Sequence record: PQ589898.1
Source of the DNA: Escherichia phage Alux-21
Reading direction: 5' to 3' (one strand)
Length of the DNA stretch: 42,729 bases
Every line of letters begins with the position of its first letter. Within the stretch, counting starts at the first letter, position 1. Below are positions 33,694-34,311 of the stretch, piece by piece. Below the pieces are notes generated by a model. That model ran no database searches, was not told the origin of the DNA, and saw only the letters and a program-made list of their open reading frames with translations. A program made the translations under genes and the position numbers.

Positions 33694-34311
33694 ATGAATA
33701 GTCACAACATCATATCAAGGTGCGAAGCAAAGCGTTTAGGGGAAAAATTCTATTTCACTGGAAAGCCTTGCAAGAACGGAGGGGTTGGACTGCGCCGCGT
33801 TGATAATACGAATTGTTGTTGTGACTATTGTAAAGCCAAAAAATATAACCGCGAACGCAAGCTGGTAGAAAGAAAAAAATCCGACACTGCAAAATACATG
33901 GAGGAATGGCGTGCGCGAAATAGGGAAAAAATCGCAATAGCGCAAAGGCGTTATAGGGATAAAGACAAAGAAAAATTAAGAGAAAGATGTCGCGCATACT
34001 ATCATCACCACAAGGATAAGTATCGAACCGGAAAGGCAAAACGGAGAACAAAAACCACTCTTTGTGTGCCATCCTGGTTTTCTGAATTTGACGAGTTAGT
34101 GCTATCAGAAGCGGGCTCATTGGCGTCGTTGCGAGACATGGAAACCGGTATCAACTGGCATGTTGACCATATGGTTCCGCTTCAGTCTAGCACCGCTTGC
34201 GGCCTGCATTGCGCAGATAACATTCAGGTTATCCCAGCAGCAATGAACCTTGAAAAGCACAACAAGATGTTGCTGACAAACCCATTAGAGTGGCTGCGGA
34301 ATGGCAAATAA
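33694..34311 (+). CDS. HNH endonuclease (second free-standing copy)
   Basis: 205 aa; N-terminal Cys cluster (CKNGG...CCCDYC), Lys/Arg-rich middle, C-terminal HNH motif WHVDHMVPLQSSTACGLHCADNIQVIPAAMNLEKHNK; AT-rich; inserted between E/E' and tape measure. Confidence 0.6.
   Translation: MNSHNIISRCEAKRLGEKFYFTGKPCKNGGVGLRRVDNTNCCCDYCKAKKYNRERKLVERKKSDTAKYMEEWRARNREKIAIAQRRYRDKDKEKLRERCRAYYHHHKDKYRTGKAKRRTKTTLCVPSWFSEFDELVLSEAGSLASLRDMETGINWHVDHMVPLQSSTACGLHCADNIQVIPAAMNLEKHNKMLLTNPLEWLRNGK

Follow-up and report, generated by a model that had tools for sequence, protein, structure and literature searches.

An AT-rich open reading frame (ORF) in the tail module of Escherichia phage Alux-21 (sequence record PQ589898.1) is wedged between the frameshifted tail assembly chaperone gene and the tape measure gene, with no intergenic space on either side. 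This arrangement raises the question of whether the ORF encodes a component of the tail apparatus or is a mobile element that settled at this junction and, in the latter case, how such an element could be accommodated between the adjacent tail genes. The analysis described here covers the complete 42,729-nt stretch of DNA (hereinafter, the window), which represents a Jilinvirus-like (Iiscvirinae) myophage that is 88-94% identical to the phages vB_EcoM-ep3, HeidiAbel_Bas97, Salmonella PT1, ECO1230-10 and ECOO78.

Gene order and reading frames at the junction

The tail tube gene (PF04985) is followed by gene E (33275..33559, plus strand, as for all features with coordinates in this section), which encodes a tail assembly chaperone of 94 aa (PF10109 Phage_TAC_7, E = 6.6e-18; PHROG 166 'tail protein') and ends in ...AGT TTT TTA GAC TAA. 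A -1 slippery heptamer for the production of E+E', T_TTT_TTA, was recognized at 33547..33553 by reading the sequence and checking the codon frame; after the heptamer, the -1 frame remains open through the E' extension (33560..33693) up to the TAA at 33691-33693. The ATG of the 205-aa ORF (33694..34311) abuts this stop codon, and the 3' end of the ORF, ...CGG AAT GGC AAA TAA, overlaps by 11 nt (34301..34311, from the ORF coordinates) the gene for the tape measure protein (TMP; 34301..36658, 785 aa; PF10145, PHROG 28). The ORF depends on TMP for its stop codon: the last three codons and the stop are built from the TMP start, ATG GCA AAT AAG, with the TAA coming from TMP codons 3-4. These coordinates coincide with those given in an earlier note on this DNA, where the E' stop had been placed directly against the start of an HNH endonuclease gene that overlaps TMP by 11 nt. 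The AT-richness of the gene, to which the same note had drawn attention, is also evident, given that the GC content of the ORF is 44.6% compared to 54% in E, 57% in TMP and 54.3% in the entire window, and its GC3 is 0.46 versus 0.63.

Among the close relatives, two slippery heptamers that lead into the same E' frame are found one codon apart (window 33545-33553 and equivalent positions), namely T_TTT_TTA in the window, ep3, ECO1230-10 and contig L005, and A_AAT_TTT, one codon upstream, in HeidiAbel, PT1, ECOO78 and contig L051. Two other interpretations of the reading frames were considered and discarded. In the window, E' and the ORF are in the same frame, with a single TAA between them, but a read-through fusion is not a conserved feature because the corresponding gene is in another frame in contig L050 and is separated from E' by a spacer in ep3 and L051. 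An intron-encoded endonuclease was rejected as well: the Rfam search detected no intron at the ORF, which is a separate reading frame between two complete genes.

Absence of the ORF from the junction in close and distant relatives

Five close relatives, HeidiAbel, PT1, ECO1230-10, ECOO78 and ET-SD-TH, carry no gene at this junction; the empty state was read directly at the junction in four of the five, and for ET-SD-TH it was deduced from the match length only. In HeidiAbel, PT1 and ECOO78, the TMP ATG comes directly after the E' TAA (...AACTAA|ATGGCAAATAAG...), and in ECO1230-10, 6 nt separate the two codons. As indicated by the alignment and the junction sequences, the window carries, exactly at the TAA|ATG point of the empty alleles, 607 extra nucleotides (33694..34300, plus strand), with a 4-nt AATG repeat at the borders.

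The same picture extends to distant relatives: none of the 40 IMG/VR contigs that encode relatives of E (32-96% identity) has a homologue of the ORF, or any gene at all between E' and TMP. The TMP start could be placed in 35 IMG/VR contigs, where it mostly lies between -14 and +6 nt from the E' stop; the gap is +47 to +85 nt in 10 of these 35. The overlap between E' and TMP that the earlier note described as normal for P2-type tails is found, at 8-14 nt, in many distant relatives, whereas in the closest empty-site phages the two genes merely abut.

The earlier note had suggested a precise insertion into the chaperone/tape measure junction and had named a conserved tail component as the opposite outcome. 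Given the empty-site alleles in five close relatives (one by match length) and in approximately 40 distant ones, the ORF cannot be regarded as a conserved component of the tail; ORF 33694-34311 is an insertion relative to both close and distant relatives. This locus displays a hallmark of homing genes, in that close relatives differ in the occupancy of one exactly defined site.

A large family of predicted HNH nucleases

The best library match of the window protein is PHROG 1035, 'endonuclease VII' (E = 2.5e-17), and the Pfam search gave no match. A word search yielded 156 homologues at E <= 1e-5, none of which has a precomputed Pfam domain, and the family comprises 3,331 clusters (50% identity) at E <= 1e-30 and 29,472 clusters at E <= 1e-10; this is, then, a very large phage family that lacks a Pfam model. 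The existence of these homologues together with a dN/dS of 0.12, obtained in a comparison with the 82%-identical allele of contig L005, rules out a fortuitous reading frame. The gene is intact and is under purifying selection.

In an alignment of 65 family members, W155, D158, P162, G170, H172, N176, Q178, I180, P181, N185 and K188 are invariant, and H156 and H159 are nearly so (H159 is present in at least 90% of the 65 homologues). The corresponding motif, WHVDHMIPL...GLH..NIQVIP..MNL.K.NK, is an H-N-N variant of HNH from which the usual cysteine pairs are absent; all residues characteristic of the HNH/His-Me finger core (D-H, a structural Asn and the final metal-binding Asn/His) are accounted for. 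The AlphaFold2 model (pLDDT 89) comprises a small N-terminal module rich in Cys, a stretch of basic helices (about 80 residues), and a helix followed by a beta-beta-alpha arrangement at the motif. The N-terminal module (33703..33843, plus strand; YFTGKPCKxG...R...C....C), with the conserved C26, C41 and C46, matches to PHROG 1081 and 11472, and pLDDT > 95, is a putative DNA-binding or zinc module. It is followed by a K/R-rich helical linker (residues ~44-123; 33823..34062, plus strand; AF2 helices 44-75, 77-90, 92-105 and 107-123), the least conserved part of the protein (dN 0.16). The predicted catalytic core, W155-H-V-D158-H159...N176-I-Q-V-I-P...N185..K188..N190 (34156..34263, plus strand), which was delineated by the invariant columns, is modelled as strands 155-158 and 178-181 and helix 182-187.

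Additional indications of the fold come from the homologues. Matches to PF01844 were detected in 6 of the 38 homologous C-terminal domains, although not in the window protein itself; three homologues score 21.6, 21.3 and 20.6 bits against a gathering cut-off of 21.4, in each case over the catalytic core, and Pfam HNH and HNH_5 are the only families that recur among these domains. With hhalign, WHVDHMVPLQ was aligned to DYDVDH840IVPQS of SpCas9, at a low probability of 10%. Structure searches returned no HNH structure, sequence and profile searches against PDB chains yielded low-complexity matches or, in the case of the profile searches, none, and the NCBIfam search gave weak Cas9d matches only. 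Claudette gp54, considered as a canonical HNH reference, turned out to be of the YbcO type and was dropped. The HNH assignment made in the earlier note is therefore upheld by the motifs, by PHROG 1035 and by homologues at or near the Pfam HNH threshold, but finds no counterpart in the structure search. On balance, the HNH fold of the window protein is probable rather than proven, and the nuclease is probably active.

The foreign segment and the E' extension

Comparison with the relatives indicates that the foreign patch is 741 nt long rather than 607 nt and comprises, in addition to the insert, a replaced E' extension (33560-33693). Across the 134 nt of this extension, the nucleotide identity to ep3 and to all relatives that lack the homing endonuclease gene (HEG) is about 57% (range 55-60%), compared to ~95% in E and TMP; the drop occurs exactly at the E stop codon, and the identity is back to ~95% at the TMP ATG. 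The GC content of the window-type extension is 44.8% versus 53-57% in every other E' allele. The encoded peptide retains the conserved motif YIR.G.LALASHTGW...F.W.L.GL and is no more distant from the Pseudomonas and Xanthomonas relatives (68-71% identity) than from those of coliphages (57-64%).

The window-type extension occurs in each of the four genomes that carry this nuclease lineage and in no genome that lacks the lineage; in contig L005, the peptide is identical to that of the window, with 5 synonymous changes in the gene. An exact 23-mer scan of IMG/VR and JGI metagenomes, which detects exact matches only, revealed no window-type extension in a HEG-less genome. We read the extension, which has a low GC content and is inherited jointly with the nuclease gene, as donor flanking DNA that was probably co-converted with the HEG, and its divergence from the HEG-less alleles may shield the carrier genome from cutting. 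The extent of the insertion given in the earlier note accordingly needs a qualification: the gene itself is inserted precisely, whereas the segment of apparently foreign origin exceeds the ORF and includes the E' extension.

Exchange of alleles and backbones

A protein identical to that of the window is encoded on contigs L054 and L055, the backbone of which is of the ECO1230/L005 type, with a TMP of 781 aa (785 aa in the window) and without the 234-aa collar-domain gene. Between the window and L054, the sheath and tube genes are 93-95% identical, the tract 33184..34329 (plus strand) is 99.6% identical, with 9 mismatches (4 of these within 33518-34329), and beyond 34329 the identity drops to 49-83% in TMP. 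We infer that this tract, which is shared across different backbones and centred on the nuclease gene, results from recent gene conversion.

The complementary case is provided by contig L005, where an 82%-identical allele of the nuclease occupies the same site. The backbones of L054 and L005 are 95-100% identical, versus 73-88% nucleotide identity in the nuclease ORF, and the limits of the divergent patch are the nuclease start and the TMP start. In the comparison of the window with L005, dS reaches 0.87 in the nuclease ORF, a value four times as high as in the flanking tube, E and TMP genes (0.19-0.35); the combination of low dN/dS with raised dS therefore indicates that the gene is kept by selection and has a history distinct from that of its flanks. 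Taken together, the same allele in different backbones and different alleles in the same backbone constitute the classic signature of HEG-centred gene conversion, and the presence of one element in different backgrounds along with co-converted flanks is another hallmark of homing genes. Mosaic tracts could, in principle, also arise when co-infecting phages undergo ordinary homologous recombination, without any action of the nuclease.

Mosaicism is also apparent elsewhere in the tail module. The central part of TMP (34480-35580) is 49-83% identical to L054, L005 and ECO1230-10 and ~95% identical to HeidiAbel, PT1 and ep3. The tail-fibre-like gene with a collar domain (PF07484; 234 aa, window 30450-31154) is located between a 93-aa gene and the sheath gene, and its absence from L054 and L055 represents a presence/absence polymorphism in the fibre module.

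Related nucleases at this and other junctions

At the same junction, ep3 carries a 227-aa homologue that is 40% identical to the window protein, contig L051 has a gene related to that of ep3, and contig L050 encodes a third nuclease type, with 46% identity. Three diverged lineages (40-46% amino acid identity) thus share the E'/TMP junction. The 11-nt overlap with the TMP ATG, with the TAA at TMP positions +8 to +10, is also found in ep3, L051, L050 and L005. The upstream joints vary: TAAATG in the window and TAATG in L050, whereas ep3 and L051 have an AT-rich spacer of 50-70 nt at this point. The diverged flank of the ep3 lineage is the downstream rather than the upstream one, with the first 40 nt of TMP differing by approximately 12 substitutions and an additional codon. 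The three lineages do not group in the neighbor-joining tree, which is star-like and weak, and both independent invasions and one ancient insertion fit this topology.

The annotation of these genes is uneven. The ep3 gene (L001 2563-3246; NC_025430.1, about 33975-34658) is intact and has no CDS in RefSeq, the region is labelled 'tail protein' in the ep3 GenBank record, and homologues in Xanthomonas phages FoX2 and FoX3 are annotated as 'glycolate dehydrogenase'.

Other family members in Jilinvirus-like contigs of sister phages are located between TerS and TerL, where they overlap the TerL start by ~31-34 nt, or downstream of SSB (L007, 704-1288; L052, 679-1290; L006, 3001-3744). Neither site is occupied in the window, in which the TerS gene (14686-15210) and the TerL gene (15170-17218) overlap. 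Distant members of the family are dispersed over unrelated phages, including podophages and siphophages, in non-tail contexts.

Translation of the nuclease and the tape measure protein

The TMP start lacks a Shine-Dalgarno sequence in the window (34301) as well as in contigs L002-L004 and L010. The energy of the duplex with the anti-Shine-Dalgarno sequence at this start is -2.7 kcal/mol in the window and -0.8 to -3.3 kcal/mol in the empty-site phages, compared with -4 to -8 kcal/mol for the neighbouring tail genes. Along with the conserved tight spacing between the E' stop and the TMP start, the missing Shine-Dalgarno sequence suggests termination-reinitiation coupling, whereby translation of TMP would depend on termination of the frameshift product E'. 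This arrangement is retained after the insertion, with the nuclease ATG in the position beside the E' stop that the TMP ATG would otherwise occupy and a nuclease stop located 8-10 nt downstream of the TMP ATG. No promoter or terminator specific to the insert was detected above the level expected from shuffled sequences.

These observations can be combined into a more far-reaching scenario, which we consider unlikely to hold as a whole. Under this scenario, TMP would be translated only by ribosomes that have shifted into E', and HEGs would have specialised on this coupling node, serving as a relay and becoming addictive. With the E' stop abutting or overlapping TMP, frameshifting would set the E':TMP ratio; in carriers, the relay would run from E' through the nuclease to TMP, such that nuclease expression would be low, late and gated by frameshifting; and imprecise loss of the HEG would be lethal because TMP translation would rely on the nuclease ORF (an 'addictive' insertion).

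Probable homing and the alternative explanations

We conclude that the ORF is probably a free-standing HNH (His-Me finger) homing endonuclease gene that occupies a zero-length junction between the E' stop and the TMP start and was moved there by homing. During co-infection, the nuclease would nick or cut a HEG-less allele near the E'/TMP junction, and recombinational repair off the HEG-carrying genome would copy the gene together with its flanks, mostly the upstream one, which comprises E and the E' extension. Protection of the carrier would come from the insertion, which splits the junction, and from the divergence of the E' extension. The ORF would have taken over the initiation context of TMP, such that TMP, which lacks a Shine-Dalgarno sequence, would now be coupled to translation of the nuclease ORF, and expression of the tail gene would be preserved as a result.

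The same gene could instead be a domesticated nuclease that benefits the phage, through degradation of host DNA, exclusion of competitors, anti-defence or packaging, and is maintained by selection rather than by homing. Purifying selection on the ORF, with its dN/dS of 0.12, is what such a role would produce, and some relatives are located directly upstream of TerL, the site of known HNH packaging cofactors; the ambiguity between homing and a packaging role has been discussed previously (PMC10055350). The two readings also overlap, given that a nuclease that cuts HEG-less competitors thereby also excludes them. Nevertheless, domestication in place of homing appears rather improbable because the gene is missing in most of the close relatives, which are viable isolates, the TerS/TerL junction of the window itself is empty, and the swap of alleles within one backbone as well as the sharing of one allele by two backbones are behaviours of a selfish element.

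Another explanation, which we regard as somewhat less plausible still, dispenses with nuclease-driven homing: a passive, moron-like gene would have been placed at this junction once by illegitimate recombination and then shuffled by ordinary homologous recombination. Tail modules are mosaic anyway, as exemplified by the central TMP, which is 49-78% identical between the window and L054. A single passive placement is, however, hard to reconcile with three lineages of 40-46% identity at exactly the same junction and with the same 11-nt overlap, with family members at other gene-start junctions, with the invariance of the predicted catalytic residues, or with the near-identity tract centred on the nuclease gene. 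The position inside the chaperone/TMP unit and the apparent translational linkage to both neighbours might also bring to mind a tail-assembly component, that is, a third chaperone-like or TMP-associated protein of the E/E'/TMP system. This possibility has next to no credibility and is refuted for practical purposes by the absence of the gene from five close relatives (one by match length) and some 40 distant ones, by the nuclease motif and the affiliation with a nuclease family, and by the homologues found in podophages and siphophages outside tail contexts.

Comparison with known systems

Free-standing HEGs of phages are exemplified by the T4 MobE/Mob class (PMC2790892), and 'intronless homing' with co-conversion by SegG (a reference cited in PMC12724721). 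Similarly to the T4 Mob and Seg genes, the window gene is an intergenic ORF between conserved essential genes, with presence/absence among close relatives and apparently co-converted flanks, and similarly to Mob, it encodes an HNH-type catalytic module along with a distinct module putatively involved in DNA binding. The order of the modules differs from that in Mob, with a Cys-rich N-terminal module, a basic helical linker and a C-terminal HNH without cysteines; and unlike Mob and Seg, the window ORF has no intergenic space, directly follows the stop codon of the frameshifted chaperone and shares its terminator codon with the start region of the downstream gene. In the Vibrio phage ICP1, HEGs are found at the boundaries of genetic exchange and at the tape measure locus (Barth, Dunham & Seed 2023, PMC10055350). 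The window resembles ICP1 in that HEGs are located beside essential structural genes including TMP, in that breakpoints of identity coincide with the HEG, and in that one locus harbors different HEGs (those of ICP1 show ~30% identity). The TMP HEGs of ICP1, however, belong to HNH-3 and reside within introns, whereas the window gene is free-standing, belongs to another HNH family and lies upstream of TMP.

With F-CphI/DHHRN (PMC6083498) and PHROG 1035, the window protein shares the features of a His-Me finger nuclease with a C-terminal catalytic domain and a putative role as a phage HEG. The DHHRN group is defined by a central DHDH with CX2-4C and CX2C zinc ligands on its flanks, together with a conserved Arg and a conserved Asn (PMC6083498). 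Membership in F-CphI/DHHRN (the T4 Endo VII motif) was rejected given that the motif in the window protein is HVDH, with neither flanking Cys pairs nor the conserved Arg. The conserved C-terminal columns of the family are W, D, P, G, H, N, Q, I, P, N and K. With the DHHRN features absent, the label 'endonuclease VII' is a loose one.

HNH proteins of the HK97 gp74 type are terminase-associated packaging cofactors. The window protein is likewise a small phage HNH protein, and some members of its family are encoded just upstream of TerL; unlike the gp74 type, however, the window gene is 16 kb away from the terminase genes, dispensable in relatives and polymorphic. Assignment as a terminase-associated packaging factor was discarded, given the position of the gene between E' and TMP, its absence from viable relatives and the unoccupied TerS/TerL junction.

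Overall, this is a well-supported HEG insertion that is ordinary in kind. Its particular features are an insertion site of zero length that adjoins a frameshift product, a stop codon taken from the downstream gene, the replacement of the E' extension along with the insertion, and the uncharacterised HNH family. The locus provides a clean natural example of HEGs driving mosaicism within an otherwise conserved phage tail module, with a single junction that hosts three diverged nuclease lineages and at which both a tract of recent conversion and a swap of alleles are visible. For an abundant HNH family without a studied member, the HEG-less junctions of HeidiAbel and ECO1230-10 and the window allele form a substrate pair. 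A possible link between chaperone frameshifting and tape measure translation is also brought to light. With regard to annotation, the RefSeq record of ep3 lacks the gene, and the relatives labelled 'glycolate dehydrogenase' or 'tail protein' are mislabelled.

A second nuclease and other features of the window

A second free-standing endonuclease gene (28252-28686, minus strand; 144 aa, PHROG 2340) is located between tail-fibre genes, on the strand opposite to theirs. The protein is a canonical Cys-rich HNH nuclease from a different family, with an N-terminal CxxC...CxxC and a C-terminal CEICG...HHDDY...LCQAHHKQWH. In ECOO78, an 87.5%-identical copy resides beside the SSB gene, which implies that the second nuclease is mobile as well. 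The two nucleases of the window are effectively unrelated outside the HNH core (BLASTP E = 0.087). The remark in the earlier note on two unrelated HNH genes in one tail module thus stands as far as their existence and lack of relationship are concerned, but such co-occurrence is not especially unusual, given the existence of HEG-rich phages (PMC10055350). A tRNA-Arg (TCT) gene was identified by both Rfam and ARAGORN at 40782-40858 (minus strand), and a weaker Rfam tRNA match (40.9 bits), with no ARAGORN call, lies close to the end of the window at 42487-42560 (plus strand).
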